From contig DASRYI010000344.1 of NCBI GenBank assembly GCA_035687255.1, positions 1 to 60,142 on the forward strand: a stretch of 60,142 nucleotides of DNA, read 5' to 3'. The notes under the pieces are model-generated. The model did not search any database. It saw nothing but the letters and a program-made list of their open reading frames with translations, and was not told the DNA's origin. Position 1 is the first letter of the stretch. Each line of letters opens with the position of its first letter. Both the position numbers and the translations under genes were made by a program. Source of the stretch: Candidatus Krumholzibacteriia bacterium (GTDB taxonomy: Bacteria > Krumholzibacteriota > Krumholzibacteriia > WVZY01 > JAKEHA01). Below are positions 6,129 through 41,128 of the stretch, one piece after another.

Positions 6129-6791
6129 TCAGTCGGCGTACTTGACGCCGCAGCCGTATGATACCGTGGACTTGGTGGCCACGGGCTTGCCCGCCATCGA
6201 TGCATCCAGACACGCCGATACGTAGTTGTCGGCAGTGGCAATGTCCCTGGGATCGGTCGACGGCTTGTTGTCGATCGCTCCGGCGTAGATCAACACGCCC
6301 TCCGGGTTGATCACGAACATGTCGGGCGTGGTCTTGGCCCCGTACTCGCGGCCCACAGTTCCGTCCGGGTCGCGCAGATACGCGGTGGACGCAACCTTTC
6401 TTTCCTTCGTCATCTCCTGCAGTGCGGCGGGGTCGTAGTAGCCCTGTTTGCCGGCCGCCGACGAACAGATGGTGAGCCACACCACGCCCTTCTCGGTGTA
6501 CTTCTTCTGCAACGCCTGCATGTTTCCCGAGCCGTAGTGCTTCTTCACGAACGGGCAATCCAGGTTGTTCCACTCCAGCACCACGTACTTGCCCTTGAAC
6601 GCGGAGAGCGCATACTCCTTCCCGTCGATTCCCGTCAGCTTGAAATCGGGCGCCGGCTTGTCGATGGCGGCGGTCATTGCGCTTTTGGTGTCGACGCTCG
6701 GGGAATCGGCGGCGGCGAGCGGCGCCAGCGCCAGCACGGCGGCCACCCCGAGTAAGCAGGGTGCGGATGTGCGCCAGTTCATGTGTTTCAT
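6129..6791 (-). CDS. Periplasmic thioredoxin-fold protein (redoxin / AhpC-TSA-like)
   Basis: Signal peptide ...LALAPLAAADS. Motifs APDFKLTGIDGKEYALSAFKGKYVVLEWNNLDCPFVKKHY and TTPDMFVINPEGVLIYAG are typical of the redoxin fold. Only one Cys sits in the CPFV motif. Confidence 0.7.
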   Translation of the reverse strand: MKHMNWRTSAPCLLGVAAVLALAPLAAADSPSVDTKSAMTAAIDKPAPDFKLTGIDGKEYALSAFKGKYVVLEWNNLDCPFVKKHYGSGNMQALQKKYTEKGVVWLTICSSAAGKQGYYDPAALQEMTKERKVASTAYLRDPDGTVGREYGAKTTPDMFVINPEGVLIYAGAIDNKPSTDPRDIATADNYVSACLDASMAGKPVATKSTVSYGCGVKYAD

Positions 6792-6828
6792 GGACGTCCT
6801 CCTGTCAGCGTGTGTGGTGAATGTCAGG

Positions 6829-7701
6829 CTACCGGCGGCCCACCGGCACGTTGACCTCGATGGCGGCCGCTTCTCCCGTCTTGAACCCCGATGAGGCGAC
6901 CAGAAGCCCGTACGCCTGTCGCAGTTCGTCGGCGGGCATGCGCGCCCGTGTGATTCTCAATTCGTACACCGGCTGCCCACCCGGGCCGGGGTGGGTAGTC
7001 AGTATCTGTGGCGCCGCATTTTCGATGAGTCCCGGTTCATACGGAAAGAACAGCAGGCCCTCGAGCGGCGCGGGCGTGCCGGACGATTGCAGTTCCAGCA
7101 CCAGCGCATTCGCATCATCGATGTGCGCGTCCACGTTCCATTCCAGCGTGTGGCCCGGCAGACGGGCCCGCGTGGCGTCAAAGAGCGCGCGGTGTTCCAT
7201 GTCGCTGCGGGCCGCGGCTTCAACGGGAAGCCGCAGGTTCAATGACGCGGAACCCGGAACACACTCCTCCGCGCACGCCAGCCATGATACGTCCGCCGCG
7301 ATATCGACGTTCCCGCCCGGGGACAGGTTCGCCGGAACCTGCACGTCGCTCACCAGCAACACATCACCGCGGTATCCGAAAATGGCAATCGGCCCGGCCA
7401 TGATGCGGGACGGGAAGGGCCACTGCAGTACGCCCGCTTTGAAACCCTCGGGCAGTTTCCAGGCGATACTGGGCGCCAGTCCGGCGTCGCCCGGATTGAT
7501 CCAGTTGACGTGCCACCCGTCGCGCATCACCAGATGCACACCCAGGCGGAAGGGCTGTCCGGGCTGAACCGACGCCACATCGGCGATCAGCTCCGCGCGC
7601 ACCAGCACCGGCTTTTCCGCCAGCAATGGCTCCGCGGCGCGCGCGGAAGCCACCAGCAGGCTTCCGGCGAACAGGGCGGACAGCAGGCGAGCTACATACA
7701 T
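6829..7701 (-). CDS. DsbD N-terminal-domain-like (DsbD_N/DsbC-type) periplasmic thiol-disulfide protein
   Basis: ATG at 7701 gives MYVARLLSALFAGSLLVASARA (signal). Motifs FRLGVHLVMRDGWHVNWINPGDAGLAPSIAW and VSWLACAEECVPG (Cys pair) match the DsbD alpha-domain pattern. The upstream 10 codons of the listed ORF are probably not translated. Confidence 0.65.
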   Translation of the reverse strand: MYVARLLSALFAGSLLVASARAAEPLLAEKPVLVRAELIADVASVQPGQPFRLGVHLVMRDGWHVNWINPGDAGLAPSIAWKLPEGFKAGVLQWPFPSRIMAGPIAIFGYRGDVLLVSDVQVPANLSPGGNVDIAADVSWLACAEECVPGSASLNLRLPVEAAARSDMEHRALFDATRARLPGHTLEWNVDAHIDDANALVLELQSSGTPAPLEGLLFFPYEPGLIENAAPQILTTHPGPGGQPVYELRITRARMPADELRQAYGLLVASSGFKTGEAAAIEVNVPVGRR

Positions 7702-7884
7702 GTGAATGGATTTTTCGGACTGAAGCACCACCGCGTAATCATAGTCGCTGCAACGCTCAAGAGCAATTTCGGCATAGAAGATCGGAAATCCGAAATTCGT
7801 CTTGACAATCCGGAGTATTTTGTCGGAAATTGGTGGTGAACATCAGCAACCAAGACCGCGAAAATCGCGCGGCATCCTTCCACA

Positions 7885-9396
7885 ATGGTCGCAAAAATCA
7901 GACTCCCAAGGCTTTTCTACAACACGATCAGTATCATCGGCGGTGCCATGACCCTCGTGGTCGGCGGCACCCTGGTGTCGTTCCTGATCGTGATGGCGTC
8001 GTTCGGCAAGGAAAACCCCTATCTGGGGATTTTCGTCTACATGGTTCTGCCCGTCATGCTGGCGATCAGCGTGGTACTCATCCCCATCGGGATGCTTCGC
8101 CGCCGCCGCCGCATCAAGCAGCACAAGGACGACCTTCCACCCCAGTTGCCCCAGCTCGATCTCAACAAGCCGACGCATCGCAACGCGCTGATCGTCGTCC
8201 TGCTGGTGACGGGCCTGGTGTCCATCGTCACCGTGGTCGGCGGTTACCAGGCGTATCACTACACGGAGTCCGTCGAGTTCTGCGGAAAGACCTGTCATAC
8301 GGTGATGAAGCCGGAATACACCGCCTACGGCAATTCGCCGCACGCGCGCGTGTCGTGTGCGCAGTGTCACGTCGGAGCCGGCGCCGACTGGTACGTGAAA
8401 TCCAAGTTGTCGGGCTCGTATCAGGTGTATGCGGCCACGTTCAACAAGTACCCGCGGCCCATCCCGACGCCCATCAGGAACCTGCGCCCGGCGCAGGAAA
8501 CCTGCGAGCAGTGCCACTGGCCGGAGAAGTTCTTCGGCGCCCAGCAGCGCCAGTTCAATCACTACATGTACGACGATTCGACCACGCACTGGCCGATCAA
8601 TCTGCTCATCAAGGTGGGCGGTGGTGATCCCAAGACCGGCCAGACGGCGGGCATCCACTGGCACATGAACATCGGCGCCAAGGTTGAGTACATTGCGCGC
8701 GACGAGAAGCGCCAGGATATCCCGTGGATCCGCGTGACGGAGAAAACCACGGGACGCGTCACCGTCTACCAGGATGAGGATAATCCGCTGACTCCGGAAG
8801 AAATCGCCGCCGCGACGCCGCGGCGCATGGACTGCATGGACTGCCACAACCGGCCCAGCCACAAGTTCCATTCACCGGACTACGTGATCGATCAGGCGAT
8901 TCTTACGGGCAAGATCAGCCAGACGCTGCCCGCGATCAAACGCATCGCCGTGGAGTCGATGGCGGGGAACTACGCCACGGAGGACGAGGCCATGCGCGGG
9001 ATCGCGTCGAAGATTCCCGCCGCGTATCGCAAGGATTTCCCCGACGTGTTCGCGAAGCGCCAGGTGGATATCGACGCCGCCGTGGTCGCCACGCAGCAGG
9101 AATTTTCGCAGAACATGTTTCCGGAGATGAAGGTGACGTGGGAGGGCTATCCCGACAACATCGGTCACTTTATCTACCCGGGATGTTTCCGCTGCCACAA
9201 CGGCAAGAAGAAGAGCGAAGAGGGATGGACCATCTCGCGCAACTGCACCACGTGTCACATCATTCTTCGTCAGGGTGCCGGCGAGCAGATGGAGATGGCA
9301 ATGTCGGAACAGGGGCTTGAGTTCAAGCACCCGGACGGCGGCGACGACTGGCGGGACACCGATTGCTATGAGTGCCACACGGGGACCCAGCCCTGA
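7885..9396 (+). CDS. Membrane-anchored heptahaem cytochrome c, NapC/NirT/NrfH-like
   Basis: Three N-terminal hydrophobic helices, then 7 CxxCH (CGKTCH, CAQCH, CEQCH, CMDCH, CFRCH, CTTCH, CYECH). The first block FCGKTCH...YGNSPHARVSCAQCH resembles quinol-dehydrogenase NapC/NirT proteins. Confidence 0.85.
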   Translation: MVAKIRLPRLFYNTISIIGGAMTLVVGGTLVSFLIVMASFGKENPYLGIFVYMVLPVMLAISVVLIPIGMLRRRRRIKQHKDDLPPQLPQLDLNKPTHRNALIVVLLVTGLVSIVTVVGGYQAYHYTESVEFCGKTCHTVMKPEYTAYGNSPHARVSCAQCHVGAGADWYVKSKLSGSYQVYAATFNKYPRPIPTPIRNLRPAQETCEQCHWPEKFFGAQQRQFNHYMYDDSTTHWPINLLIKVGGGDPKTGQTAGIHWHMNIGAKVEYIARDEKRQDIPWIRVTEKTTGRVTVYQDEDNPLTPEEIAAATPRRMDCMDCHNRPSHKFHSPDYVIDQAILTGKISQTLPAIKRIAVESMAGNYATEDEAMRGIASKIPAAYRKDFPDVFAKRQVDIDAAVVATQQEFSQNMFPEMKVTWEGYPDNIGHFIYPGCFRCHNGKKKSEEGWTISRNCTTCHIILRQGAGEQMEMAMSEQGLEFKHPDGGDDWRDTDCYECHTGTQP

Positions 9397-12178
9397 GCGT
9401 AACTGGCGCGCGGCTGTGCCGCGCTGGTGGATACTTGTTCTCCTTGGCCTGCTTTGCATCGTCACGCCCCCACCGGTGCCCTCCGCCGCCGCGGGTGGCG
9501 ATCACGAAACCTGTCTTGAGTGTCACGGCGAACGCGACGACGAAACTCCCTTCGTCGATGCAAAGCTGTTCCGCGCATCCGTGCACCGCGATCTCGACTG
9601 CTCGGACTGCCACGACGACGTGGATCCGGACGATCTCCCGCACCCCGAGCCCCTCAAACCCGTCAAGTGCGGCACCTGCCACGATGACGAACAACTCGAC
9701 TTCGACGCCAGCATCCACGGGCAGGCGCTGAACCGGCACGAACCGTACGCCCCGTCCTGCAAGGAATGCCACGGGGTGCACGACATCCTCTCGCCGAAAA
9801 ACGAACGCGCGCCCACCTACAAGATGAACGTGCCGTTCCTGTGCGGCAGGTGCCACCGTGAAGGCGCACCGGTTGCAAGCACCTACAACATTTCGGAACA
9901 CAACATCCTCGAGAATTACAGCGAGAGCATTCACGGTGAGGGGCTGTTCAAGAAGGGACTCACCGTGGCCGCGGCCTGTGCCGACTGCCACCGCGCCCAC
10001 CTGATTCTTCCGCACACCGACCCGCGCGCGTCCATCTCGCCGCGCAACATCACGAAGACGTGCATGCAGTGCCATGCCAAGATCGAACAGGTGCACACCA
10101 AGGTCATCCGCGGCGAATTGTGGGAAAAGGCGCCCGGCGCCATTCCCGCGTGCACGGACTGCCATGTTCCGCATCGCGTGCGCAAGGAGATCACGACGCT
10201 GACGATCTCGGACAACAGCTGCATGGCCTGCCATGAAAAACAGGGACTGGTCAGTACCGCGCACGGGGACACGCTCACCGTCGACCGCAACGAGCTGGCC
10301 ATGTCGACGCACAAGAACATTCCGTGCGTAAAATGTCACAGCGACGTCGACCCGCGCCGGCACCGCCCCTGCGAAACCGCGGGAAAGGTGGATTGTTCGA
10401 ACTGCCACCAGAAAATATCCGAGGAATACGCGGTCAGCGGGCACGGACAGGCGCATGCGAAGGGCGTCCCGCAGGCGCCCTACTGCACCACCTGTCACGG
10501 TACGCACGGTGTGCGTCCGCATGTCGACGAAACGTCACCCACGTACCGCGCCAATGTGCCTTCGCTGTGCGGCGGCTGCCATCGGACGGAGGGCAAGGCC
10601 CCGCAGGTGGCGCACCTTTCGGAAGTCTCGGCGTTCACGGACTATTCGAAGAGCGTGCACGGGCGCGCGCTGACGGAGAAGGGACTGCTGCCGAGCGCCG
10701 TGTGCATCGACTGCCACTCGTCACACATGATTCTCAAGCACACCGACGAGCGCTCCACGGTGTCACACGAGAACCTGCCCGCTACCTGCGCCACGTGCCA
10801 CCGTGGCATCTACAAGGAGTACATCAAGAGCGTCCATTATTCGCCGGACGCAAAGGACTCGGCCAAGCTTCCCAACTGTGCGAACTGTCATTCGTCCCAC
10901 ACCATCGGGGACGTCAAGCAGGACGCGTTCCTCACCCAGGTGACGGGGCAGTGCGGTTCGTGCCACCAGGAACTCGGTAAGACGTATCTCGAAACCATGC
11001 ACGGCAAGGCGTACCGCCTGGGATACCTGAAGGCGGCCAAGTGTTCCGACTGTCACGGCGCGCACGAGATTCTCGCCGTCGACAATCCCAACTCGTCGGT
11101 GGGGCACCGCAATATCGTGGCCACCTGTCGCAAGTGCCATCCCGACGCCAACGCCCGGTTCACCGGCTATCTGACGCACGCCACGCACCACGACCCGAAG
11201 AAGTATCCGCTCCTGTTCTATTCGTACTGGGCGATGACGTTCCTGCTCATCGGGGTGTTTGCGTTCTTCGGGCTGCACACGGCACTGTGGTTGCCGCGGT
11301 CGTTCCGGCACATGATCGAGCACCGGCAGCACGCGAAGAAACATCCGCATGCGTACTACATCCGGCGCTTCACGCGCGCGCAGCGTTTGACGCACATCTT
11401 CGTCATCAGCAGCTTCCTCCTGCTGGCGCTGACCGGAATGATGCTGAAATTCTCGCACATGACATGGGCCACGTTCCTGGCCAACGCGCTGGGAGGCGTC
11501 AAGGTGGCGGGTGTGCTGCACCGCATCGCCGCGGTCACCACCTTCGGTTACTTCACGTTCCACATCTTTTCGTTGGTGCGCATGAAACGGACGCGGCACA
11601 TGGCGTGGCGTGAATTGTTGTTCGGCCCGGGCTCGCTGATGTTCAACCGCAAGGATATCTCCGACTTCATCGGAACGTTGAAGTGGTTCTTCGGGGCGGG
11701 CCCGCGTCCCCCCTACGGGCGCTGGACCTACTGGGAGAAGTTCGATTATCTGGCGGTGTTCTGGGGCGTGGCGGTAATCGGGTTTACCGGCCTGATGCTG
11801 TGGTTGCCCGTGATGTTCACGCGCGTCCTGCCGGGGTGGCTCATCAATGTGGCCACGATCATCCACAGTGACGAGGCGCTGTTGGCCGTCGGATTCATAT
11901 TCACCATCCATTTCTTCAACACACACCTGCGTCCCGAGGCGTTCCCCATGGACACGGTCGTGTTCACCGGACTGACGCCGTTAGAGGACTACATCAAGGA
12001 CCGTCCGGAAGAATACGAGGCCATGAAGCGCTCGGGTGAGCTGCGCCGCCGTCTCGTCAAGGCGAACCTGTCGCGGCGCTGGATGACCACAGTGTACGTG
12101 TTCGGGTCCCTCTTCCTTGTTGTCGGTCTGATTCTGATCGGACTGATCATCTACTCCATGATCTTCGGTTACCGGTAG
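9368..12178 (+). CDS. 19-haem cytochrome c fused to a C-terminal FdnI/HydC/PhsC-like b-type cytochrome membrane domain (CbcL-like architecture)
   Basis: I counted 19 CxxCH, from CLECH to CRKCH. About six hydrophobic helices follow, with conserved His (LTHIF, VLHRI, IIHSDE, FTIHFFNTH). The start is ambiguous: ATG 9368 overlaps the upstream gene by 29 nt, and GTG 9416 gives MPRWWILVLLGLL. Confidence 0.85.
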   Translation: MSATRGPSPERNWRAAVPRWWILVLLGLLCIVTPPPVPSAAAGGDHETCLECHGERDDETPFVDAKLFRASVHRDLDCSDCHDDVDPDDLPHPEPLKPVKCGTCHDDEQLDFDASIHGQALNRHEPYAPSCKECHGVHDILSPKNERAPTYKMNVPFLCGRCHREGAPVASTYNISEHNILENYSESIHGEGLFKKGLTVAAACADCHRAHLILPHTDPRASISPRNITKTCMQCHAKIEQVHTKVIRGELWEKAPGAIPACTDCHVPHRVRKEITTLTISDNSCMACHEKQGLVSTAHGDTLTVDRNELAMSTHKNIPCVKCHSDVDPRRHRPCETAGKVDCSNCHQKISEEYAVSGHGQAHAKGVPQAPYCTTCHGTHGVRPHVDETSPTYRANVPSLCGGCHRTEGKAPQVAHLSEVSAFTDYSKSVHGRALTEKGLLPSAVCIDCHSSHMILKHTDERSTVSHENLPATCATCHRGIYKEYIKSVHYSPDAKDSAKLPNCANCHSSHTIGDVKQDAFLTQVTGQCGSCHQELGKTYLETMHGKAYRLGYLKAAKCSDCHGAHEILAVDNPNSSVGHRNIVATCRKCHPDANARFTGYLTHATHHDPKKYPLLFYSYWAMTFLLIGVFAFFGLHTALWLPRSFRHMIEHRQHAKKHPHAYYIRRFTRAQRLTHIFVISSFLLLALTGMMLKFSHMTWATFLANALGGVKVAGVLHRIAAVTTFGYFTFHIFSLVRMKRTRHMAWRELLFGPGSLMFNRKDISDFIGTLKWFFGAGPRPPYGRWTYWEKFDYLAVFWGVAVIGFTGLMLWLPVMFTRVLPGWLINVATIIHSDEALLAVGFIFTIHFFNTHLRPEAFPMDTVVFTGLTPLEDYIKDRPEEYEAMKRSGELRRRLVKANLSRRWMTTVYVFGSLFLVVGLILIGLIIYSMIFGYR

Positions 12179-13387
12179 GTTGTGGGCGTAAGATTGTCCC
12201 TACGAGTGACAGAGAAGTCGGGGCAGTAGCAAAATCGTCATCCGCGTTCCTCTAGAATGCGTAGCGAAGGTGGTGTGTGCGGTTGACGGAAAGCGCCGCC
12301 GTGCGAACCTCCCGCCGGTAGTAGCCCTGCCAGCGCGGTGAGAGCTCGATCTTGTCGAAGAACAGGCGCTCCTTGAGCAGATCCCGAACTCGCCAGGGCC
12401 GCGTTGTCAGTCCCAGAATCATCGCCGGCGTGACGCGCGCGCCCTTTTCCCGGCGTTTCTTCATGTAATTTCTCCAGACCTGGAAGATGGCCAGCTTTTC
12501 GATGGAGGCTTGCCGGCGCTTCGCCCAGGCGATGGTCTCGCGCTTGTGGGCCGCGGTACTGTGGCGGATCATCAAGTCCAGAAGATTGACCTCCCAGAGC
12601 GGATTGCGCCGGTCACGCCGGCGCTTTGACGACGTGATGCGGTGCGTGACGCTGCGCTCTAAAGCGGCGATGGCACGAGGGTAGGCGCGGTGGTCATCGC
12701 TCCGAATAACTCGAGATGAAATGGGAGTGAGAAGATCTCGCATGCCGTCTTCGACCGCTCGCGAGGGAGCACACCCGAACGCCTCCTCAAGCTGGTATCG
12801 GCGGGCCTTTTGACTCGCTCGCATGCGTCCCTTGCGACGGAGTGGACTATCAGTGTGATAGAGAAAGTATCCCGAGTCCACGGCCACCGCCACATTGTGG
12901 TGGAACGGAAAGTACTGGCTCCATTCGAATGTCTCGAATCCATCGATGGCGATCTCGTTGATTACGGCAATGCGATGGAGCTCCCGGGCCTGAGTGAGCA
13001 GGCAGTGGCGCCCCAGACGGGCGACCTGGTGTGCCACCGTCTCTGGGCTGCAGCGCAGCGCACGGGAGATCTGGCGGTTGCCCATGCATCCGACCACCAT
13101 CATGACGATGCGCGGGATGAGGTCAGGGCGTTTTTGCCAGTATGACGTCGAGAAGGTCTGCGTACTGAAGTGACGGCGACATGCCAGACATGTAAACCGC
13201 TGGATACGAGTGGGTGCGGCCCGGCGCGTGTAGAAGCCCTTACGTTTGTAGGGCCACTCACGAGAAAACGCGGTGAAATAGCAGCAGTTCGGGTTGGGGC
13301 AATGTGGGGGCACCCATTCTACCTCTCTTGCTCCCATGTACCGGCCCAGGCACACAGCGTGCCAGGGCCAATTTCATGGCCACAACC
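12178..13387 (-). mobile_element. IS1-family insertion sequence (~1.21 kb, single-ORF type)
   Basis: Imperfect terminal inverted repeats: 12178-12201 GGTTGTGGGCGTAAGATTGTCCCT versus the reverse complement of 13364-13387 GGTTGTGGCCATGAAATTGGCCCT (19/24 identical). Both begin GGnnnTG as in IS1. They enclose one transposase ORF. No target-site duplication was seen. Confidence 0.6.
12252..13355 (-). CDS. IS1-family DDE transposase (zinc finger + HTH + DDE)
   Basis: N-terminal Cys clusters CPNPNCCYF...FTCLACRRHF. HTH NRQISRALRCSPETVAHQVARL. DDE-like blocks IAIDGFETF, IRSDDHRAYPRAI, LWEVNLLDLMIRHSTAAHKRETIAW, which parallel IS1 InsB EMDEQW / MTDGWPLY / IERHNLNLRQHL. An alternative start is ATG 13337. 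Confidence 0.7.
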   Translation of the reverse strand: MCLGRYMGAREVEWVPPHCPNPNCCYFTAFSREWPYKRKGFYTRRAAPTRIQRFTCLACRRHFSTQTFSTSYWQKRPDLIPRIVMMVVGCMGNRQISRALRCSPETVAHQVARLGRHCLLTQARELHRIAVINEIAIDGFETFEWSQYFPFHHNVAVAVDSGYFLYHTDSPLRRKGRMRASQKARRYQLEEAFGCAPSRAVEDGMRDLLTPISSRVIRSDDHRAYPRAIAALERSVTHRITSSKRRRDRRNPLWEVNLLDLMIRHSTAAHKRETIAWAKRRQASIEKLAIFQVWRNYMKKRREKGARVTPAMILGLTTRPWRVRDLLKERLFFDKIELSPRWQGYYRREVRTAALSVNRTHHLRYAF

Positions 13388-13424
13388 AAAAAAGAGGACG
13401 CGTTCGTAAGAACGCGTCCTCTTA
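13386..13424 (-). terminator. Rho-independent terminator of the minus-strand cytochrome operon
   Basis: Perfect 14-bp stem AAGAGGACGCGTTC/GAACGCGTCCTCTT with a GTAA loop. On the minus strand a run of six U follows (A-run 13388-13393, overlapping the base of the stem). It lies 32 nt after the stop at 13456. Confidence 0.7.
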
Positions 13425-13455
13425 TCCTGTCCCGTTCCAGATATCGAAGCGAGCA

Positions 13456-14040
13456 CTAGCCTCCGCTCTTGTACTTGGCTTTGCGCTCTTCCGGAATCGG
13501 ATGTGCGATGGCCGCTTTGGCCTTCGCGAAGTCAAACCCGGTGAATGTCGGGCTCTCTTTATTGTGACACTTCTCGCAGGTTGCCTGGTCGGGCATGTTC
13601 AGCCCCACCGACGCCTTCTCGATGGTTCCCGAGATGAGACCCTCCATGGTGGACTTCTTGATGTAGTCCGCGCCCGCGCCGTGACACGATTCGCAACCGA
13701 CACCGTCCTTGATGGAGTATTTCACTCCAACCATGCTGGTATCCACGCCGGCAGCGGTGACGTGGCACTTCAGGCAGTCCATTGACTTCTGCGGATCCGC
13801 AATGCCCTTGGCCTTGGCGATCTCCAGCGCCTTCGGGCTGGCCAGCGCCTCGTACGCCTTCGAGTGCTTGCTGGCCTGCCACTTCGGGTACTGCTCGCCC
13901 GCCGTCGCCGTCTTGTGGCAAACCGCGCACTTGGCTGTGCCTACAAACTTGTGCTCCGCCGCGCCCGCCACGACGCTGTACGCGAGCAAGCAGGCGCCCG
14001 CAATCAGCAGGGTGATGCTGGCGCCACCAGATCGTCTCAT
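13456..14040 (-). CDS. Periplasmic tetrahaem cytochrome c
   Basis: Signal peptide MRRSGGASITLLIAGACLLAYSVVAGAA. Four CxxCH (CAVCH, CLKCH, CESCH, CEKCH). AAGGAG RBS upstream. Confidence 0.85.
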   Translation of the reverse strand: MRRSGGASITLLIAGACLLAYSVVAGAAEHKFVGTAKCAVCHKTATAGEQYPKWQASKHSKAYEALASPKALEIAKAKGIADPQKSMDCLKCHVTAAGVDTSMVGVKYSIKDGVGCESCHGAGADYIKKSTMEGLISGTIEKASVGLNMPDQATCEKCHNKESPTFTGFDFAKAKAAIAHPIPEERKAKYKSGG

Positions 14041-14133
14041 GCCTGTCTCCTTTCAACCTGCGGCCCACACCGTCTTCAAAGCGACCATGTTAAGCCCCAA
14101 AGGGCGTTTTTCCAATACATTCCTGTATACAAC

Positions 14134-16266
14134 TCAAGGACTCTTTTTTCGCCCATCGTGTTTGCTTCCCGCGGGAGCCGCAGGCGTTTCCGTGGCAACG
14201 ATTTCCGCGTCTCCTTTTTCCGCATATTCCCCGGCGTGGAATTCCTGCCATTCGTGGACCGGCATACGGCCCGTGATCCATGTGGTGCTCATCGGATAGA
14301 CGACCGGGAGCACAATCACGAAGAAGAAGTGCCATATGAAGATCGCCGAAACCGCCAGAATCGCTTCATAGAAGTGGACGGTTTCGGAAACGCGCACAAT
14401 CCAGGCGGGGAAGAGGTGTGTCGCCACCGTGGGGAACCACAGGACCAGTCCCGTCAGGGCCATCACCCATGTGCCCCAGACCAGCGCCCAGTACTCGGCC
14501 TTCTGTGTGTAGTCAAAGGTCCGGAAGGCGGGGCGCGACCGCCGCCAGCCCACGTGATACGCCATGTTCTCGAACGCGTGGCGGACATCGTGCGCGCCGG
14601 GCGCCATCCCGCGCAGTGCGCTGCGCCCGCGGCGGGCCGCCAGCATCCAGATGCTGTGGTAGATGGCGGTGACGATCAGCAGTACGCCGAATGTGCGGTG
14701 CAGATTGGCGCGGACGCCCTCATGACCCCCCAGCCGTATCAATCGCACCCACCATGCCGTGGGGAAGCGGAGCGCAAAGCCGGTGATGGCCAGTCCCGCG
14801 AACGTGAGGAACAGAACCATGTGCTGCACGGTCTCGGCGCGGTACCAGCGCTGTATGTACGGTTCGCTGCGCACGTGCGCAAAGTGCCGCTTCATTTCGT
14901 AGCGCGCGATCAGCGCGTTGTGGAGTCCCATGCCGCCCAGCACGACGGCGATCAGCCACAGGTACAGCTTGCGTACCCACGCGCTGGGTCCACGCGGTTC
15001 GAGGGCGGCGGCGTGAGTGTAGCTCTGTGCAAACGTCGCGGTCGCATCGGGGTGACAGCGTTGGCAGGTATGCACGACGTTGGCCGGATTCACGGTGGAC
15101 AGCGAGTCCAGGGGACTGCGGATGTCGTGGACGGTGTGGCAGTCGGTGCAGTTGGCAACCAGATCGCTGCCGCGTGACATGGCCCATCCGTGGTAGCTGT
15201 CCAGGTAACTTTCCACCACACCCGGCATAATCCCGTATCTGGAGACCAGTTCGGGATTCGTGTGGCAGTCTCCACACAGTTCGCGCGCGCGATTCTCGGG
15301 GTTGATGGCTGCCGTCGGGTCCTGGGGTTTTTTGATGAGATGTTCGTTGTGGCAGTCGATGCACGTCGGTGCATCGTGAATACCGACGGCCACCGCCCGG
15401 CCGTGGATGGATGACTCGTACTCGGTGGCGATCTTCTCGTGGCAATGGCCGCAGGTGCTGGCCACGTTGGCCCGGTTGATGTGCGCCTTCGGATCGGACG
15501 GAAGACGCGAGTCGTGCGAGCCGTGACAGTCGGTGCACACAGCGGTCCGCTTGCCCTCTTTCCATCCCTCGCCGTGGACGGACGCCAGATAGGCGGGCAC
15601 CACCACCGGCAGGCGTACGAAATACTTCGTCAACGGCGCCTGTTTCTCATGGCACCCGCCGCACGTCTTCGGTACATTGCGCGGATTCACGGGTGAGGTG
15701 GTATCTGCCACCGCGACGATATGGTGGCTTCCGTGACACGTTCCACAGGTGGCGGCGCCGCCGTTCTGCCGGCGCCCGAGCCTGTGGACGCTGGTGGCGT
15801 ACTCCACCTCTTCCTTTTCGTGGCAGTTGCCGCAGGCGTACAGCGGTTCGGTGTGACCGTTTCCGCGCGGGTGAATGGTGTGGCAGGATGTGCACGACAT
15901 CTTGCCGCTCGCAAAGAGCGGATCGTGAACAGATCCCTTGAACGTCTCCCGGACGTCGTCGTGACATGATGTGCAGTCGACCTTTGTGTACTTCTTGAAA
16001 TGGGGGACGTCTTCGTAGTCGCCGGGCGCGGAATGGCAGTCGACGCAATCCAGGTCACCGTGCTGCCCGGCGTGAAACGTCTTCGCGACGATCCCGATCA
16101 GCCGGCCCTTGTCCGAGCGCATGCCGGCGTCGTCGTGACAGTCCAGACAGTCCTGAGTGGTGACCTGGGATAAAGCCGGGGTCGCCGCGCACAACGTGAG
16201 CGCAAGAACGGCGACCCCGATGAGGTCTCCGGGCACGGAGACACGCGAACCAGAGGGGTTTGCCAT
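14134..16266 (-). CDS. 13-haem cytochrome c fused to an FdnI/HydC-like b-type cytochrome membrane domain (paralogous architecture to 9368-12178)
   Basis: Signal peptide. I counted 13 CxxCH, from CLDCH to CQRCH. Hydrophobic helices follow, with His (GLHNAL, MVLFLTFAGLAITGF, NLHRTF, YHSIW, VHFYEAILAVSAIFIWHFF). Confidence 0.85.
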   Translation of the reverse strand: MANPSGSRVSVPGDLIGVAVLALTLCAATPALSQVTTQDCLDCHDDAGMRSDKGRLIGIVAKTFHAGQHGDLDCVDCHSAPGDYEDVPHFKKYTKVDCTSCHDDVRETFKGSVHDPLFASGKMSCTSCHTIHPRGNGHTEPLYACGNCHEKEEVEYATSVHRLGRRQNGGAATCGTCHGSHHIVAVADTTSPVNPRNVPKTCGGCHEKQAPLTKYFVRLPVVVPAYLASVHGEGWKEGKRTAVCTDCHGSHDSRLPSDPKAHINRANVASTCGHCHEKIATEYESSIHGRAVAVGIHDAPTCIDCHNEHLIKKPQDPTAAINPENRARELCGDCHTNPELVSRYGIMPGVVESYLDSYHGWAMSRGSDLVANCTDCHTVHDIRSPLDSLSTVNPANVVHTCQRCHPDATATFAQSYTHAAALEPRGPSAWVRKLYLWLIAVVLGGMGLHNALIARYEMKRHFAHVRSEPYIQRWYRAETVQHMVLFLTFAGLAITGFALRFPTAWWVRLIRLGGHEGVRANLHRTFGVLLIVTAIYHSIWMLAARRGRSALRGMAPGAHDVRHAFENMAYHVGWRRSRPAFRTFDYTQKAEYWALVWGTWVMALTGLVLWFPTVATHLFPAWIVRVSETVHFYEAILAVSAIFIWHFFFVIVLPVVYPMSTTWITGRMPVHEWQEFHAGEYAEKGDAEIVATETPAAPAGSKHDGRKKSP

Positions 16267-16291
16267 GGGGTTACTCCCGCGGCCAGTTCAG

Positions 16292-16320
16292 ATGCTATTC
16301 GCCCGGTGCGTGTCTGTCAA
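16292..16320 (-). promoter_or_regulatory. Candidate sigma-70-type promoter for the 13-haem/tetrahaem operon
   Basis: The minus strand reads TTGACA-N17-TAGCAT, about 25 nt upstream of ATG 16266, with a GGGAG RBS in between. The consensus used is E. coli-type and may not apply to this lineage. Confidence 0.3.
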
Positions 16321-16371
16321 CACCATGATACAGCGTATTTTCCAAGCAAATACTGGTACTGAAATTACCTG

Positions 16372-16401
16372 TCGACAAATGCACCAACGCTAAGGTAATC
16401 T
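16372..16401 (+). promoter_or_regulatory. Candidate sigma-70-type promoter for the Rieske/cytochrome b operon
   Basis: TCGACA-N18-TAATCT, ~28 nt upstream of ATG 16429 in an AT-richer divergent spacer. Flanked by the 7-bp inverted repeat ATTACCT/AGGTAAT. Confidence 0.3.
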
Positions 16402-16428
16402 ATTTCGGACAATTTGGTATCTAAAAAA

Positions 16429-16854
16429 ATGACCCGCAGAGATTTTACTAAACTCATACTTGCCGGCGGCGTGGTTGGCTGGCTGGGAAGCGTCATCTAC
16501 CCGGTTCTGTCGTACCTGCGGCCGCCGAAGGTCCCGGAGGCGAACGTTCAGTCCGTCAAGGCCGGGCAGGTGTCCGCGTTTCCGGTGAATACCGCGCAGA
16601 TCGTAAAGTTCGGACGCAAGCCGGTGATTCTGGTACGCAAGGCCGATGGTGACTTCAGCGCGCTGGCGGCCACGTGCACCCATCTCGGATGCATCGTTCA
16701 GTACCGCGGAGATCTCAAGGAGATCTGGTGCGCGTGTCACAACGGCCTGTACGACCTCAACGGTCGCAACGTCTCGGGCCCTCCGCCCAAGCCGCTCGAA
16801 CAGTACAAGGTCAACATTGTCGGCGACGACATTCTCGTCTCGAGGATGGCCTGA
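16429..16854 (+). CDS. Rieske [2Fe-2S] subunit of a cytochrome bc/b6f-type complex
   Basis: Tat-like MTRRDFTKLIL. Box I CTHLGC and box II CACHNG, 16 residues apart. Confidence 0.9.
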   Translation: MTRRDFTKLILAGGVVGWLGSVIYPVLSYLRPPKVPEANVQSVKAGQVSAFPVNTAQIVKFGRKPVILVRKADGDFSALAATCTHLGCIVQYRGDLKEIWCACHNGLYDLNGRNVSGPPPKPLEQYKVNIVGDDILVSRMA

Positions 16855-16857
16855 CGC

Positions 16858-17967
16858 ATGGCGCGCAGCGACGAAAGACAGTCGGCCATGACCGGTGACG
16901 CCCGCGACGGCGTTGTGCGGCGCTGCTACGGCTGGCTCGACGAGCGCTTTCACATTACGCCCCTGGTGAGCTTCATGCGGCACAAGCAGGTGCCGGTGCA
17001 TCGCAACACCATCTGGTACTACATGGGCGGTGTGTCGATGTTTCTCTTCCTGGTGCAGATTGCATCGGGAATTCTGCTGATTCTCTATTACAAGCCGGAC
17101 GAGGCGAATGCGTTCGAAAGTGTTCGCTTCATCACCACCCGGGTGTCCTTTGGCTGGCTGGTGCGATCCGTGCACAGCTGGTCCGCGAACATGATGGTGT
17201 TCTTCGTGTTCGTACACATGTTCAGCGTGTTTTTCACGCGCGCCTTCAAGAAGCCGCGCGAGCTGACGTGGGTAACCGGATTCGTGCTGCTGTGCCTGGC
17301 GCTCGGATTTGGATTCACGGGTTATCTCCTGCCGTGGAATGAGCTGGCTTTCTTCGCCACCAAGGTGGGAACCGACATCGCGGGCGCGGTGCCGCTGCTG
17401 GGCCATCCCATCAAGGTATTGCTGCGCGGTGGTGACGACGTTACCGGGGCCACGCTGACGCGGTTCTACGCCATTCACATTGCCATCCTGCCGGCAATAT
17501 TTGCGGCGCTGCTGGGCGTGCACCTGCTGTTCGTCCAGCGTCAGGGAATGCACGAGCCGGAGTCGATGCACGGAATGGATGCCTCACGCCGGAAGACGAT
17601 TCCGTTCTTTCCCAATTTTCTGCTGCGCGACACGCTGCTGTGGTTGATCGTTCTCAACATTCTGCTCGCGCTCGCCGTTTTCTTTCCCTGGGAACTGGGG
17701 CAGAAGGCCGATCCATTTGCGTCGGCGCCCTCGGGCATTCGGCCCGAATGGTATTTCATGTTCATGTTCCAGACCCTCAAGCTGCTGCCCGCGCACGTGT
17801 GGTTCATGGAGGGTGAAGTGCTGGGCATCATGGGATTCGGGCTTCTGGGTCTGGCGTGGCTGCTGATTCCGTTCTGGGAGTTGCGCCGCGTGCGCCTGAT
17901 GATGGCAATCGGCGTCGGAGCCATCGTGTACATGGTCGCGATGACAGTCTGGGGTTACCTGGTATGA
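16858..17967 (+). CDS. Cytochrome b (b6-like N-terminal part fused to subunit-IV-like part)
   Basis: Helix B His pair is H-x13-H ([18 protein letters not shown]). Helix D is H-x14-H ([22 protein letters not shown]). PEWY Qo motif is present ([11 protein letters not shown]). Motif [19 protein letters not shown]. Confidence 0.9.
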
Positions 17968-19295
17968 AGACGCCCGTTCGTTTCATTCTTGCCGGCCTGG
18001 GTATCGGGCTCGTGTGCATGTTCACGGTCACAGCGGGGCCGGGCGGTGGCGTGGCGAACGCGGACGAGCACGAAGAGAAACACGGGACCGAGGCGGCCGA
18101 AAACGCCGCGGGTACGGATACGGCGCAGGCGGTGGACAATTGTGTCGTATGCCACCGCGAGAACGACAACCTCCCCGACCACTTTATGGCGGCCGACGTA
18201 CACATGCAGTCGGGGATTTCGTGCTCCGGATGCCACGGAGGCGATCCCACCAGCGACGACGAGGACGTCGCCATGTCCAAGGCGAAGGGTTTCCGCGGGG
18301 TGCCGTCCAAGGAGCAGATTCCCGACTTTTGCGGCCGCTGTCACTCGGACATCAACTTCATGCGCAAGTACCGCCCGGGCATCGCCACCGACCAGGAGAC
18401 GCAGTACTGGACGTCGGTTCACGGCCAGAAGCTGCGCGCGCATGACAAGAAGGTGGCGGACTGCACCAGCTGCCACACGGCCCACTCGATATTTCCCGCA
18501 TCGGACACGCGCTCTTCGGTGAATGCGCTCAACGTGCCGTCCACGTGCGGGCGATGCCACGGCGACGCGACCTACATGGCCGGCTACGGCATTCCCACCG
18601 ACCAGCTGGAGAAGTTCAAGAAGAGCGTGCATGGAATCGCGCTGCTGCAGAATCAGGATACGGGCGCGCCCGCCTGCAACGACTGTCACGGTAACCATGG
18701 CGCGATGCCGCCGGGCGTGAATTCCATCGCCCAGATCTGCGGACAGTGCCACGTGAACAACATGAACTACTTCACGGAGTCGCGCATGGGTCACGCGTGG
18801 GTCGAACAGGGATTTCATGCCTGCGAGGAATGCCACGGCAACCACGGGGTGGCGAAGACCTCTGACACCATGATTGGCACGACGGACGGTGCCGTATGCC
18901 TCGACTGCCACGAGCAGGGCGACAAGGGATTCGAGACGGCGGGGAAGATACGCGCCAGCCTGGATTCCCTCTCCACGGCCTACGATGCGGCCGTTGCCAA
19001 ACAGAAGGTTGTCCAGCGTATCGGCATGGATGATGTGGATATCGGCTTCATGCTGCAGGAAGCCAACCAGAGCCTGGTTCAGTCACGCACGCTGGTGCAC
19101 ACGTTCGATGCACCGAAGGTCGCTGCCCGTACCGACGAGGGCATGGTGAAAGCCCAGGAAGCCAGCGTGATGGCCGACCATCAGGTGAAGGAATATCACG
19201 TGCGCCGCCGTGGATTCGGGATGGCCACGCTGTTCACAACCATCCTCGCGATCGCCCTCTTCTTCCGTATCCGCCAGATGGAATCACGGCCGTAG
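17964..19295 (+). CDS. Nonahaem cytochrome c with C-terminal membrane anchor, third gene of the Rieske/b operon
   Basis: ATG 17964 overlaps the cyt b stop (ATGA). Signal [20 protein letters not shown]. Nine CxxCH (CVVCH...CLDCH). C-terminal helix [15 protein letters not shown]. Confidence 0.85.
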
Positions 19296-19505
19296 CCCTG
19301 CGGCGTTTTACCCGACAACCCGTTGATTAATGAGGCACCCCCGCGGGCGCAACGCGGCATTTTGCATTGCGCCGGGTGGGTGGAATTCGCCCGCGATAGA
19401 ATCCCGGCGCGGGACGGGGAACCGCGGACGAGTTTCGGCGTTCATTACCGTAAAGACCAGGATAGGAGTCACCCGCTCGCGGGAGCGGTCGGAGGTGGAG
19501 GAATC

Positions 19506-20054
19506 ATGAAAACGGGAAGCTGGATTGCAATTGTAGCGTTGTTGGCGTGGATCTGCGTGTCTCCGGCGAGCTCGCAGGCACAGGAGAGTCCGAAGAAGGG
19601 CGAGGTGGAGAAGGTACCGCCGACGCCGACAGCGCCACCTCCACCGTATCCGACTCCGGGAGCGCCGGGAGGGGGAGGTGCGGAGGTTGATTCCACTTAC
19701 CCGGATATTTCGGCTCAGCTCAGTGCCGCTGAGCAGCGGATGTCCACTCTGGCGGCTGAGGCCATGAAGCTTTCGCAGTCGTTCCGTGAGCTTGCGACCT
19801 TGCATGAGGGCGCCGACCGCAGCGAGATCCTGATGATGCAGCGCATGAGCGACGCGATGGGTTCCGTGGCGGGCGAACTCGGGTTGAGTTTCAAGCAGTA
19901 CCAGAAGATGGTGGCGGATGAATCCACCGATCAGAGCGGCACGATGAGAGAACAGGTCCAGGTTCTCAAGACGGTTCTCGACGCAATGGCGGGACAGGTG
20001 GACAGCGGCGTGAAAACGCTGCACTCGCTGCAGGCGCAGCTGGGCCAGGGATAG
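19506..20054 (+). CDS. Secreted hypothetical protein (Pro-rich linker + helical domain)
   Basis: GGAGGTGGAGG RBS. Signal MKTGSWIAIVALLAWICVSPASSQA. PPTPTAPPPPYPTPGAPGGGG linker. No recognisable family. Confidence 0.5.
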   Translation: MKTGSWIAIVALLAWICVSPASSQAQESPKKGEVEKVPPTPTAPPPPYPTPGAPGGGGAEVDSTYPDISAQLSAAEQRMSTLAAEAMKLSQSFRELATLHEGADRSEILMMQRMSDAMGSVAGELGLSFKQYQKMVADESTDQSGTMREQVQVLKTVLDAMAGQVDSGVKTLHSLQAQLGQG

Positions 20055-22006: not shown

Positions 22007-22522
22007 ATGCCGTTACCATTCTCCGGTCCCGTGCGATATTTCGCGTGGGGCTTTGTTGTATCCCTCGCCGTCGCAGTTTCCGTCGCGGCGAAATCTGAAG
22101 ATCCTTCCCAGACTCTCGACCCGATTGCGGCCGTCGCGGACACGTCGCTGGCACTCTCCGGCAAGGTGGTCTATGTGGACTTCTGGGCGTCGTGGTGCGG
22201 GCCCTGCCGCCAGTCGCTGCCGTGGCTCAACGGGCTGCTCCAGCGCTACGGCGACCGGGGATTCCGCCTGGTCACCGTGGATGTGGACCGCAAACCCGCC
22301 GCCGGACGGAAATTCCTCAAGGACCTCGGTGTATCATTTCCCGTCGTGTTCGATTCCACGGGCACGTTCGCGAAGAAGTATCAACTCCAGGCCATGCCCA
22401 CCTCCTTCATCTACGGGCGTGACGGTAAGCTGCGTGAACGCCGGGAGGGCTTCCACGAAGGCGAGGCGTACGGCGTGGAAGACCAGATCGAAGACCTTCT
22501 GCAGCAGAAGGGAGTGAAATGA
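22007..22522 (+). CDS. TlpA-family periplasmic thiol-disulfide oxidoreductase
   Basis: Signal anchor. Motifs VVYVDFWASWCGPCRQSLPWL (WCGPC) and YQLQAMPTSFIYGRDGKL. Confidence 0.85.
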   Translation: MPLPFSGPVRYFAWGFVVSLAVAVSVAAKSEDPSQTLDPIAAVADTSLALSGKVVYVDFWASWCGPCRQSLPWLNGLLQRYGDRGFRLVTVDVDRKPAAGRKFLKDLGVSFPVVFDSTGTFAKKYQLQAMPTSFIYGRDGKLRERREGFHEGEAYGVEDQIEDLLQQKGVK

Positions 22523-22752
22523 AACTGTTCGTACGGATCTGTCTGCTGGTCATGACGGCGCTGGCCGCGCTATGGTCGGCGGGATGCGCATCGGTGGGCG
22601 TCGACGTGTGGGAACGCGACGTGCTGGCGCGTGCCGAGATGCAGCCGGATCACCGCGCCATCGATCGCGCGCTGGATGACCACATCTACTTCAGCAAGGA
22701 AGCCTCGAGCGGCGGCCGCGGCTTCGGTGGTGGTGGCTGCGGGTGCAACTGA
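22519..22752 (+). CDS. DUF4266-family small lipoprotein
   Basis: ATGA overlap with tlpA-like gene. Lipobox LWSAGC. Motifs VWERDVLA...M and the C-terminal GGGCGCN tail are characteristic of DUF4266. Confidence 0.75.
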   Translation: MKLFVRICLLVMTALAALWSAGCASVGVDVWERDVLARAEMQPDHRAIDRALDDHIYFSKEASSGGRGFGGGGCGCN

Positions 22753-40858: not shown

Positions 40859-41128
40859 CGACCGGCTTCCGCGGCTGGGTGGAAACGCGTATCCCGGTTC
40901 CACGGCAGTGGGAAAGCTCCCACACTCACGCGGAAAATTCTGCAGCGGCGATGACCGCTTGAGTCGACGCTCCCCGCGTCACCCGTCATTCACCGCGCCA
41001 TATCAAACACGATTACATGCACTTACGCCGCTGTGTCGGCGGCGAGAGGCATCGCGCGCCGGGACGTCGGTGAGCGGGGAATATCCAATGCAATATATGG
41101 ACTTCGGCGGGTTTTCCGGATTTGTCGT

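Follow-up and report, generated by a model that had tools for sequence, protein, structure and literature searches.

The locus considered here raises the question of what a bacterium would do with seven adjacent genes, five of which encode multihaem cytochromes c and two a Rieske protein and a cytochrome b. These genes (g1 to g7) occupy positions 7885–19295 of a 60,142-bp stretch of DNA, analysed at its full length and called the window below, which is contig DASRYI010000344.1 of assembly GCA_035687255.1 from a Candidatus Krumholzibacteriia bacterium. They were defined by listing the open reading frames (ORFs) of the region and filtering them by G+C content at third codon positions (GC3), which is high and gene-like throughout g1–g7. 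We consider it likely that the island specifies four inner-membrane (mena)quinol:cytochrome c oxidoreductases working in parallel, together with a soluble carrier, and that these would convey electrons from the quinone pool through the periplasm to acceptors beyond the cytoplasmic membrane. The observations on which this reading draws are those of gene content, family membership, conservation of cofactor ligands, topology and synteny, and they extend an initial annotation, made from the sequence letters, that had described three operons of multihaem cytochromes and quinol oxidoreductases.

The haem content of the island is unambiguous. A six-frame scan of the entire window finds 51 CxxCH motifs, all between nt 8356 and 18897 and each in the frame of the ORF that contains it (6 in g1, 19 in g2, 4 in g3, 13 in g4 and 9 in g7), and outside these five ORFs there is no CxxCH in any frame of the window. 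One additional CxxxCH motif in g1 (C133-GKT-C137-H138) brings the total to 52. The earlier hand count of 7 + 19 + 4 + 13 + 9 is thereby confirmed, and the label heptahaem given to g1 holds for its seven motifs, although one of them is CX3CH and only six are canonical. Mononucleotide shuffles of the window yield a mean of 2.6 CxxCH motifs and a maximum of 8, and residue shuffles of the five proteins yield 0.01–0.10 motifs each, compared with the 4–19 observed. Cysteines outside the haem motifs number 0–2 per protein and lie mostly within signal peptides. An inflation of the count by non-haem CxxCH, which had been raised as a way in which the interpretation could fail, is ruled out, as nearly all cysteines belong to motifs, the motifs are invariant across phyla, and conserved histidines are numerous enough to act as distal ligands (20 for the 19 haems of g2).

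The first gene, g1 (7885..9396, plus strand), encodes a predicted inner-membrane heptahaem cytochrome c of 503 amino acids (aa) belonging to the ImcH family, which has been catalogued by Levar et al. (2014) and by Zhong and Shi (2018; PMC6295460). The latter define the family by three N-terminal transmembrane (TM) helices, an atypical CX3CH motif beside the third, six CX2CH motifs and a length of 495–519 aa, and g1 agrees with this definition in its TM helices, its CX3CH, the positions of its six CX2CH motifs and its length, and also shows homology to NapC/NirT/NrfH. Hydropathy places all three helices at the N-terminus (17–35, 48–66 and 101–119); the CX3CH at C133 follows directly after the third, and the six CxxCH motifs lie at 158, 207, 317, 434, 454 and 494. 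The ImcH of Geobacter sulfurreducens (GSU3259, 507 aa) has its motifs at 132, 156, 205, 311, 428, 448 and 486 and its helices at 13–35, 45–67 and 100–122 (Zhong and Shi 2018, Table S3), so that the helices occupy nearly the same positions and the spacing of the motifs is 24, 49, 106, 117, 20 and 38 as against 24, 49, 110, 117, 20 and 40 in g1. An even closer register is seen with the ImcH of an Omnitrophica genome (OGX39360.1), in which the six CX2CH motifs lie within one residue of those of g1 and are identical in position at four. Furthermore, g1 is 42% identical to a protein of Zixibacteria RBG-1 (EQB63199.1) that Zhong and Shi list as an ImcH homologue. The assignment of g1 to ImcH is thus made through motif and TM coordinates and through transitive homology to listed proteins.

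The broader relationship of g1 to the NapC/NirT-type quinol dehydrogenases, which the initial annotation had recognised, is borne out by family models and by structure. The Pfam model Cytochrom_NNT (PF03264) matches at 1.4e-12 (48.1 bits, cut-off 24.1) and the NCBIfam NrfH model at 4.5e-14, and the only sequence match of g1 in the PDB is NrfH (2J7A), which aligns to residues 102–212 and covers the third TM helix and haems 1–3. ImcH homologues have been reported from 12 phyla (Zhong and Shi 2018), and the Geobacter protein oxidises menaquinol electroneutrally and reduces PpcA (bioRxiv 10.1101/2023.05.03.539133). In Geobacter, imcH is monocistronic, whereas g1 overlaps, and is oriented together with, the gene that follows it.

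That gene, g2 (9368..12178, plus strand; 936 aa), and its paralogue g4 (14134..16266, minus strand; 710 aa) are predicted members of the CbcL/MtrH/MtoC family. Both carry a signal peptide, a periplasmic haem domain with 19 CxxCH motifs in g2 and 13 in g4, and an FdnI-type di-haem b domain, which in g2 is a six-helix FdnI fold. They are 30% identical over 681 aa, membrane domain included, and their presumptive b-haem ligands (His676, His718, His833 and His848 in g2; His482, His523, His631 and His646 in g4) align with one another. Several comparisons bear out the earlier description of the two as fusions of a multihaem chain to an FdnI-type b domain. The Pfam model Ni_hydr_CYTB matches g4 at 40.2 bits, above its cut-off of 30.1, and g2 below it at 25.3 bits; NCBIfam models of the formate dehydrogenase gamma subunit match both; and a phmmer search of the PDB with g4 gives Escherichia coli FdnI (1KQF_C) as its sole significant match. 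FdnI ligands H18, H57 and H155 align to histidines of g4, and H169 falls one residue away from a histidine. For g2 we obtained an AlphaFold2 model from an alignment of 20 sequences; its mean predicted local distance difference test (pLDDT) score is 51 and only its TM domain, which consists of six long helices, is usable. The only meaningful Foldseek match of this model is again FdnI (1kqf_C), with a target TM-score of 0.75 and a probability of 1.00. Differences from FdnI are nevertheless clear: the histidines of helix IV are 15 residues apart in g2 and g4 instead of 14, which shifts the fourth ligand by one residue, the domain has two extra TM helices, and it is fused to a c-type haem chain where FdnI docks an Fe-S subunit.

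The motifs and ligands are conserved across relatives. In an alignment of 20 relatives of g2, all 19 motifs and the four TM histidines are invariant, and among 83 relatives from more than ten phyla these positions are 96–100% conserved, the four TM histidines being conserved in every one. The bis-His ligands of the b domain, the alignment of which had been proposed as a check, are therefore preserved in both paralogues and in the 83 relatives. The haem domain of g2 also contains 20 non-motif histidines conserved at 96% or above; these suffice as distal ligands for 19 haems, so that bis-His ligation of every haem is possible. A further residue stands out. Cys335 (window 10370–10372, motif HRPCETAGKVDCSNCH) is the only non-motif cysteine of mature g2 and has no partner, and it is invariant in all 83 relatives. 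It has no counterpart in g4, which has Leu at this position, or in the first internal repeat of g2, and it could be the cysteine of a His/Cys-ligated haem or a redox-sensing thiol.

The repeat in question emerges from comparing the two haem domains: the two halves of that of g2 (residues 12–347 and 270–601 of the translated stretch) each align to the haem domain of g4, and the g2 domain is an internal duplication of a unit of about 9–10 haems. Successive motifs of g2 are spaced 29, 23, 30, 28, 45, 28, 30, 23, 35, 23, 30, 28, 45, 28, 30, 25, 30 and 28 residues apart. Cabys_319 of Caldithrix abyssi (WP_006928296.1) has almost the same pattern (37, 23, 30, 28, 45, 28, 30, 23, 37, 23, 30, 28, 45, 28, 29, 25, 30, 28). 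The published family of CbcL/MtrH/MtoC homologues spans 3–23 haems, 416–1034 aa and 15 phyla, a range within which both g2 (19 motifs, 936 aa) and g4 (13 motifs, 710 aa) fall. Moreover, Table S2 of the same survey already contains 19-haem CbcL homologues of about 920–950 aa with the motif spacing of g2, from Caldithrix (Cabys_319), Ignavibacteria, Gemmatimonadetes, Solibacteraceae and Handelsmanbacteria (Zhong and Shi 2018, PMC6295460). Members of this 19-haem subfamily include OGU58019.1 (Ignavibacteria), MAF27600.1 (Gemmatimonadetes) and WP_105502606.1 (Solibacteraceae). The much larger haem counts that had been presented as setting this locus apart from Geobacter are accordingly no novelty.

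The resemblance to Geobacter that had been noted on architectural grounds is, at the level of families, real homology, with g1 in the ImcH family and g2 and g4 in that of CbcL. Geobacter CbcL (GSU0274) is smaller, with 9 haems and 619 aa, and like g2 and g4 it combines an N-terminal periplasmic domain of multiple CX2CH motifs with a six-TM FdnI/HydC-type di-haem b domain that has conserved histidines. Its motif spacing (…29, 28, 42/43, 28) is repeated in g4, to which one extra four-haem unit has been added. The haem domain of Geobacter CbcL is bis-His ligated, has an apparent potential (Eapp) of −194 mV and reduces PpcA (PMC9129911).

The start of g2 is most likely ATG 9368 rather than GTG 9275 or position 9476. 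ATG 9368 gives the protein a typical signal peptide (…WWILVLLGLLCIVTPPPVPSAAA) and a length, 936 aa, equal to that of the closest homologue on a long contig. The public entry for g2 (900 aa) begins at GTG 9476 and lacks a signal peptide, and its annotated start was probably mis-called.

The fourth quinol-interacting module is encoded by g5, g6 and g7. The product of g5 (16414..16854, plus strand; 146 aa from TTG 16414, with ATG 16429 as the likely start) is a Rieske [2Fe-2S] subunit with a twin-arginine motif (TRRDFTKL), one TM anchor and the cluster-binding boxes CTHLGC and CACHNG; the Pfam Rieske model matches at 2.9e-14 (53.2 bits), and NCBIfam models of b6f and bc1 Rieske proteins match as well. 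Gene g6 (16858..17967, plus strand; 369 aa) encodes a cytochrome b in which a half resembling cytochrome b6 is fused to a half resembling subunit IV. It has seven predicted TM helices, histidine pairs spaced H-x13-H and H-x14-H, a PEWY motif (RPEWYF) and matches to Pfam Cytochrome_B (4.9e-53) and Cytochrom_B_C. Its best PDB matches are cytochromes b6 (8.7e-64), to which all four ligand histidines align, with the pairs on helices B and D. Finally, g7 (17964..19295, plus strand; 443 aa) encodes a nonahaem cytochrome c subunit that has a signal peptide and is anchored by a C-terminal TM helix (418–436); it shares homology with g2 and g4 in the haem domain, and its family is widespread, with 6769 proteins at E ≤ 1e-20. 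The Rieske/cytochrome b/nonahaem operon of the initial annotation is thus upheld by family matches, by structures and by aligned ligands.

This operon shares with the cytochrome b6f and bc1 complexes the Rieske boxes, four histidines with b6-type spacing (13 and 14) and the PEWY motif of the quinol-oxidising (Qo) site. However, b6f has separate b6 and subunit IV polypeptides where g6 fuses the two in one 369-aa ORF, and the nonahaem g7 stands in the place of the c1/f subunit. At the position of a cytochrome b6 cysteine, which we take to be that of haem ci, g6 has a tyrosine. Because both the haem-ci cysteine and cytochrome f are absent, we do not file g5–g7 as b6f in the strict sense. A comparable system is the ExtMNOPQ cluster of Geobacter (GSU2935–2932), a conserved Rieske/b6 cluster with multihaem cytochromes (PMC5877670) that comprises the Rieske protein ExtO, the cytochrome b ExtP, ExtQ and cytochromes of 12 and 10 haems. 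Both systems combine a Rieske protein and a b6-type cytochrome b with multihaem cytochromes and lack a monohaem c1 or f, whereas g5–g7 differs in its b6/subunit-IV fusion and in its single, C-terminally anchored nonahaem, and the rhodanese, the ExtI porin and the selenoprotein ExtKL of Geobacter Ext have no counterpart beside it. The N-terminal half of g6 matches the NCBIfam ExtP model (NF040969) at 225.5 bits (E 5.7e-67). This is below the curated equivalog cut-off of 290, and g6 is related to ExtP without being its equivalog.

The remaining gene, g3 (13456..14040, minus strand; 194 aa), encodes a secreted tetrahaem cytochrome with a signal peptide and four CxxCH motifs. It matches Pfam Cytochrome_C554 (PF13435) at 8.1e-19 (68.8 bits, cut-off 20.8) and is a probable periplasmic electron carrier. 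In Nitrosomonas, cytochrome c554 carries electrons towards a NapC/NirT-type quinone reductase. The signal peptides of g2, g3, g4 and g7, the twin-arginine translocation (Tat) motif of g5 and the C-terminal anchor of g7 are consistent with a periplasmic location of the haem domains.

The arrangement of these genes supports the three operons that had been proposed. With the g2 start at ATG 9368, g1 and g2 overlap by 29 nt and are probably co-transcribed, and the stop codon of g6 overlaps the start of g7 as ATGA. Between the convergent g1–g2 and g4–g3 operons lies a terminator-like hairpin (13392..13423) with a perfect 14-bp stem and an A-run and a T-run on its flanks. It belongs to the minus-strand g4–g3 operon and presumably also ended the g1–g2 operon before an insertion separated the two. 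The divergent intergenic region between g4 and g5 (16267..16413) contains a sigma-70-like site, TTGACA-17-TAGCAT (16320–16292, minus strand), upstream of g4; it is a consensus match only, and promoter-like sites in the region do not exceed the number expected from shuffles.

The insertion just mentioned (12178..13387, minus strand) was overlooked in the initial annotation and appears to be an insertion sequence (IS) placed between the convergent operons. It is 1.2 kb long, lies exactly between the g2 stop codon and the hairpin, and interrupts no ORF. Its imperfect 24-nt terminal inverted repeats (12178–12201 and 13364–13387, 79% complementarity; GGTTGTGG…/…CCACAACC) surround a transposase-like ORF of 367 aa (12252–13355, minus strand) with a Cys-rich N-terminal region. 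Matches of this ORF to IS1 and ISL3 transposases are weak (34.7 and 25.7 bits, below the cut-offs of 100 and 180), and no clear target-site duplication was seen at 12178–13387. In one close relative (L003) the gap between g2 and g3 is only 118 bp.

The gene set extends well beyond the present organism. At E ≤ 1e-10 there are 5447 relatives of g2 in the database, and the best 120 of them are about 900–950 aa long, at least 61% identical, and come from Krumholzibacteria, Latescibacterota, Eisenbacteria and Calditrichota. A scan of GTDB with one genome per species found a full-length relative in at least 593 species genomes of more than ten phyla, among them Bacteroidota (Prolixibacteraceae, Draconibacterium and the isolate Maribellus sp. 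YY47), Ignavibacteria, Chlorobiota, Acidobacteriota, Gemmatimonadota, Zixibacteria, KSB1, Omnitrophota and Hydrogenedentes. Conservation within the 19-haem subfamily is unusually high: identity across phyla is 45–84% among the loci and proteins listed, and all 19 motifs are fixed. We compared the neighbourhoods of the 83 loci carrying a g2 relative by tblastn. Exactly 19 CxxCH motifs are present in 78 of the 83 relatives. An ImcH-type gene adjoins the 19-haem gene, in either order, in 26 loci, and every one of these 26 neighbours has exactly one CX3CH; this adjacency, found in at least 26 loci, spans Krumholzibacteria, Latescibacterota, Zixibacteria, Acidobacteriota, Bacteroidota and Ignavibacteria. 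No explicit statement of imcH–cbcL adjacency appears in the text of PMC6295460. A second CbcL paralogue adjoins the 19-haem gene in 23 of the 83 loci, and the corresponding numbers for a c554-type tetrahaem and a Rieske/cytochrome b/multihaem operon are 25 and 6. The complete set of four modules is present in L003, in a Bacteroidota metagenome-assembled genome (MAG; L045) and in Zixibacteria RBG-1 (L065), and the gene order of the window is kept in four close relatives (L003, L085, L086 and L087). The search for the same gene order that had been suggested for this locus thus returned both the set and, in near relatives, its arrangement. In three of these relatives (L085, L086 and L087, ENA assemblies) gene calling divides the 19-haem gene into two or three pieces, for instance of 538 and 412 aa; these probably reflect frameshift errors of assembly and no real splits of the gene.

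The RBG-1 locus has been described before, as an Mtr-like iron-respiration cluster of multihaem cytochromes with a Rieske/cytochrome b complex (Castelle et al. 2013, PMC3903129). Present in it are genes for Rieske, cytochrome b, nonahaem, ImcH and 19-haem CbcL proteins and for a second CbcL paralogue with 11 haems, the products of which are 38–54% identical to those of the window. Its order differs, the bc operon lying upstream and on the same strand as imcH–cbcL, and it has additional genes that are absent from the window, namely a 13-haem cytochrome, Fe-S and NrfD-like genes, two monohaem cytochromes and MtrAB homologues. Two ORFs beside the 13-haem cytochrome (at 16196–18341 of this locus) encode proteins of 409 and 315 aa, the shorter of which has a Tat-type signal peptide, and may be an NrfD/Fe-S pair. 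They stand in a position comparable to that seen in a Latescibacterota locus (L001, 6440–9975), in which imcH and the 19-haem cbcL come directly after genes for a 4Fe-4S protein and an NrfD-type membrane protein. Such a pair would be a fifth type of quinol-interacting module tied to the gene set.

Relatives also suggest where the electrons may leave the cell. Directly after the nonahaem gene in L003 (19026–22654), L086 (11429–15047) and L087 (11498–15150), and as a variant in the fourth close relative, stand genes for a decahaem cytochrome, a protein of 527–534 aa and a lipoprotein hexahaem. The decahaem is of the DmsE/MtrA type (E 1.5e-45, full model coverage). The middle protein is secreted and free of cysteine, and in L003, where it has 527 aa, it has no Pfam or NCBIfam match even at E ≤ 1; we label it a putative porin, possibly of a new family, because of its signal peptide, its lack of cysteine and its position between two cytochrome genes. 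The hexahaem also has homologues close to the 19-haem gene in roughly twelve further loci, most of which carry the label Bacteroidota. In L045 there is a porin-like gene with 14-haem and 8-haem cytochromes, and in L065 there are the MtrAB homologues. The trio is comparable to the Mtr and Pcc conduits (MtrAB(C), OmaB-OmbB-OmcB), of which the window has none: tblastn with the conduit trios of L003, L045 and L065 gave only weak matches to g2, g4 and g7, and Pfam scans of the other large ORFs of the window revealed no terminal reductase. The absence from the window of both a porin-cytochrome component and a terminal reductase, which had been stated at the outset, is therefore borne out.

These comparisons allow a scheme to be proposed for the island. 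In g1, quinol would be oxidised at an NrfH-type site beside the CX3CH haem 1 that follows the third TM helix, and electrons would run along its seven haems. In g2 and g4, oxidation would take place in the four-His di-haem b domain of the FdnI fold, from which electrons would enter the attached chains of 19 and 13 haems. The pair g5–g6 would oxidise quinol at the Qo (PEWY) site, probably in a Q-cycle, and would pass electrons to the membrane-anchored nonahaem g7, which would take the place of cytochrome c1 or f, and g3 would probably be a periplasmic shuttle. By analogy with Geobacter, the ImcH module would serve acceptors above about −0.1 V and the CbcL modules those below, and the energy yields would differ, ImcH being electroneutral, CbcL of FdnI type and the Rieske/b6 module a Q-cycle. 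Parallel modules may thereby let the cell match energy conservation to the potential of the acceptor. The MtrA-like decahaem, putative porin and lipoprotein cytochrome of relatives point to extracellular electron transfer, to Fe or Mn oxides, humics or similar acceptors. In addition, iron cycling has been proposed for a Krumholzibacteria MAG that became enriched in a bioreactor fed with iron (PMC7914226). We infer the direction of electron flow, the relationships among partners, the tuning to potential and the final acceptor from these parallels.

Several considerations weigh against this scheme. The direction of electron flow is not readable from sequence, and the homology to Geobacter ImcH and CbcL rests on motif and TM positions and on transitive homology. 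The haem domain of the g2 model has pLDDT values below 50, as expected for a domain modelled without its haems, and is unusable, so that it says nothing on the linearity of the chain. There is no outer-membrane conduit, extracellular cytochrome or terminal reductase on the 60-kb contig; the trio of its relatives is lost or moved in this organism, and a conduit may lie on another contig of the MAG. Finally, the island may be in flux, because the IS element separates g2 from its terminator.

The first of these points invites the opposite direction, in which electrons from extracellular Fe(II) or another donor would pass through a conduit and the haem chains to reduce quinone via the CbcL/MtoC-like b domains, the Rieske/cytochrome b module then either running backwards to supply NAD(P)H or passing electrons downhill to an oxidase. 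Homologues of CbcL/MtrH/MtoC do occur in the Fe(II) oxidisers Gallionella and Dechloromonas (MtoC), and no sequence feature divides oxidising from reducing members (PMC6295460). Moreover, Castelle et al. (PMC3903129) judged Fe(II) oxidation the more likely for the RBG-1 cluster, because extracellular cytochromes were lacking. A Krumholzibacteria MAG had cyc2 as well as omcS (PMC7914226), and g3 is of the c554 family, whose Nitrosomonas member carries electrons towards a quinone reductase. We nonetheless regard reverse flow as unlikely: all ImcH homologues known so far come from reducers of extracellular acceptors (PMC6295460) and g1 is probably co-transcribed with g2, the surface lipoprotein multihaem beside an MtrA-like/porin pair in L003, L086 and L087 is an arrangement typical of reducers, and scans of the window found no cyc2-like, oxidase or carbon-fixation gene. 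If electrons do flow outward from quinol, they need not leave the periplasm. In such a general electron hub, g5–g7 would be an ordinary complex III that feeds oxidases or N-oxide reductases, and the ImcH-, CbcL- and c554-type proteins would feed soluble reductases of nitrite, N2O, sulfur or selenium compounds encoded elsewhere. This would agree with the absence of an outer-membrane component from the contig, with the common role of NapC/NirT-type proteins as donors to periplasmic reductases (bioRxiv 10.1101/2023.05.03.539133), with the proposal that a Caldithrix Rieske/cytochrome b pair feeds Nap/eHao through a tetrahaem (PMC5317091), with the cox, cbb3, norB, nosZ and nrfAH genes of Krumholzibacteria MAGs (PMC7914226) and with the Fe-S and NrfD genes that precede ImcH–CbcL in L001. 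Yet the four modules are linked to one another and to MtrA-like, porin and lipoprotein-cytochrome genes in several phyla, no inspected locus links them to oxidase or N-oxide reductase genes, and chains of 13–19 haems would be unnecessary for soluble periplasmic partners, and a hub of this kind seems to us rather improbable.

It could also be argued that the pathway has fallen into disuse in this genome, given that an IS-like element stands directly after g2 and that the decahaem/porin/hexahaem trio of L003, L086 and L087 is missing from the window. Decay of this kind is very improbable, however, since none of the seven genes is disrupted, every haem motif and ligand is retained, GC3 shows no departure from that of genes, the IS is intergenic and the conduit may simply sit elsewhere in the MAG. 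A different arrangement of the outward pathway deserves mention as a speculative and doubtful proposal, namely that ImcH and the 19-haem CbcL are subunits of one conserved, periplasm-spanning supercomplex gated by Cys335, and not independent alternatives as in Geobacter. Support comes from the overlap of their genes here and their adjacency in at least 26 loci. If the 19 haems formed a linear row like that of MtrA, they would extend over about 150 Å and could span most of the periplasm to an MtrA-like/porin conduit without soluble carriers. The unpaired Cys335 would then control the flow, either as part of a His/Cys pair of haem ligands or as a redox-active thiol gate. We continue to favour four parallel quinol-oxidising modules that deliver electrons beyond the cytoplasmic membrane.

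The surroundings of the island may be noted separately. Thiol-redox genes lie on both sides of it. Those upstream (6129–7731) encode proteins with DsbD_N and AhpC/TSA domains, and those downstream (22007–24936) encode a thioredoxin/TlpA-like protein, an ApbE flavin transferase and a DUF3570 protein (389 bits), which we take to be a predicted outer-membrane barrel. These genes may help the cytochromes to mature or may serve a periplasmic redox system of their own. Directly after g7 there is an ORF of 243 aa at 19323–20054, although translation more likely begins at MKTGSW… and gives about 183 aa. Its product combines a signal peptide with a Pro-rich linker and a helical C-terminus, matches no family and has no counterpart in the related loci. 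Large secreted proteins are encoded at 1275–5990, 41033–42172 and 51291–54650. They comprise a C25 peptidase of 1571 aa with FG-GAP repeats and a FlgD_ig C-terminus and two further proteins with FlgD_ig or Por_Secre_tail (type IX secretion system, T9SS) C-terminal domains, and they fit an origin in the Fibrobacterota–Chlorobiota–Bacteroidota (FCB) group.

How new is this locus? Published genomic surveys already include the families, the high haem counts and even the cluster in its combined form. The possibility raised in the initial annotation, that the gene order might prove to be a widespread and already characterised respiratory locus, is correct as far as distribution and cataloguing are concerned (Castelle et al. 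2013; Zhong and Shi 2018), but experimental characterisation is confined to the Geobacter orthologues. Because the gene set is widespread and already catalogued, the novelty implied at first was overstated. What the present analysis adds is a member from the Krumholzibacteria, a quantified linkage of the four modules and the conduit across phyla, the IS insertion, the lack of a conduit on the contig, a corrected start for g2 and the invariant unpaired cysteine of the 19-haem subfamily. The locus is by itself no new kind of system, and its use lies in annotation and in the choice of experimental targets, for which Maribellus sp. YY47 (L024) and Caldithrix abyssi are cultured carriers of the 19-haem gene. 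With it, the Krumholzibacteria join the lineages that possess the full set of ImcH, 19-haem CbcL, 13-haem CbcL and Rieske/b6/nonahaem modules, a set that travels together across distant phyla and often stands beside an outer-membrane conduit. These findings support the idea of a branched, potential-tuned oxidation of quinol for extracellular electron transfer beyond Geobacter, which may be common in the FCB-group bacteria of soils and sediments and in Acidobacteriota.

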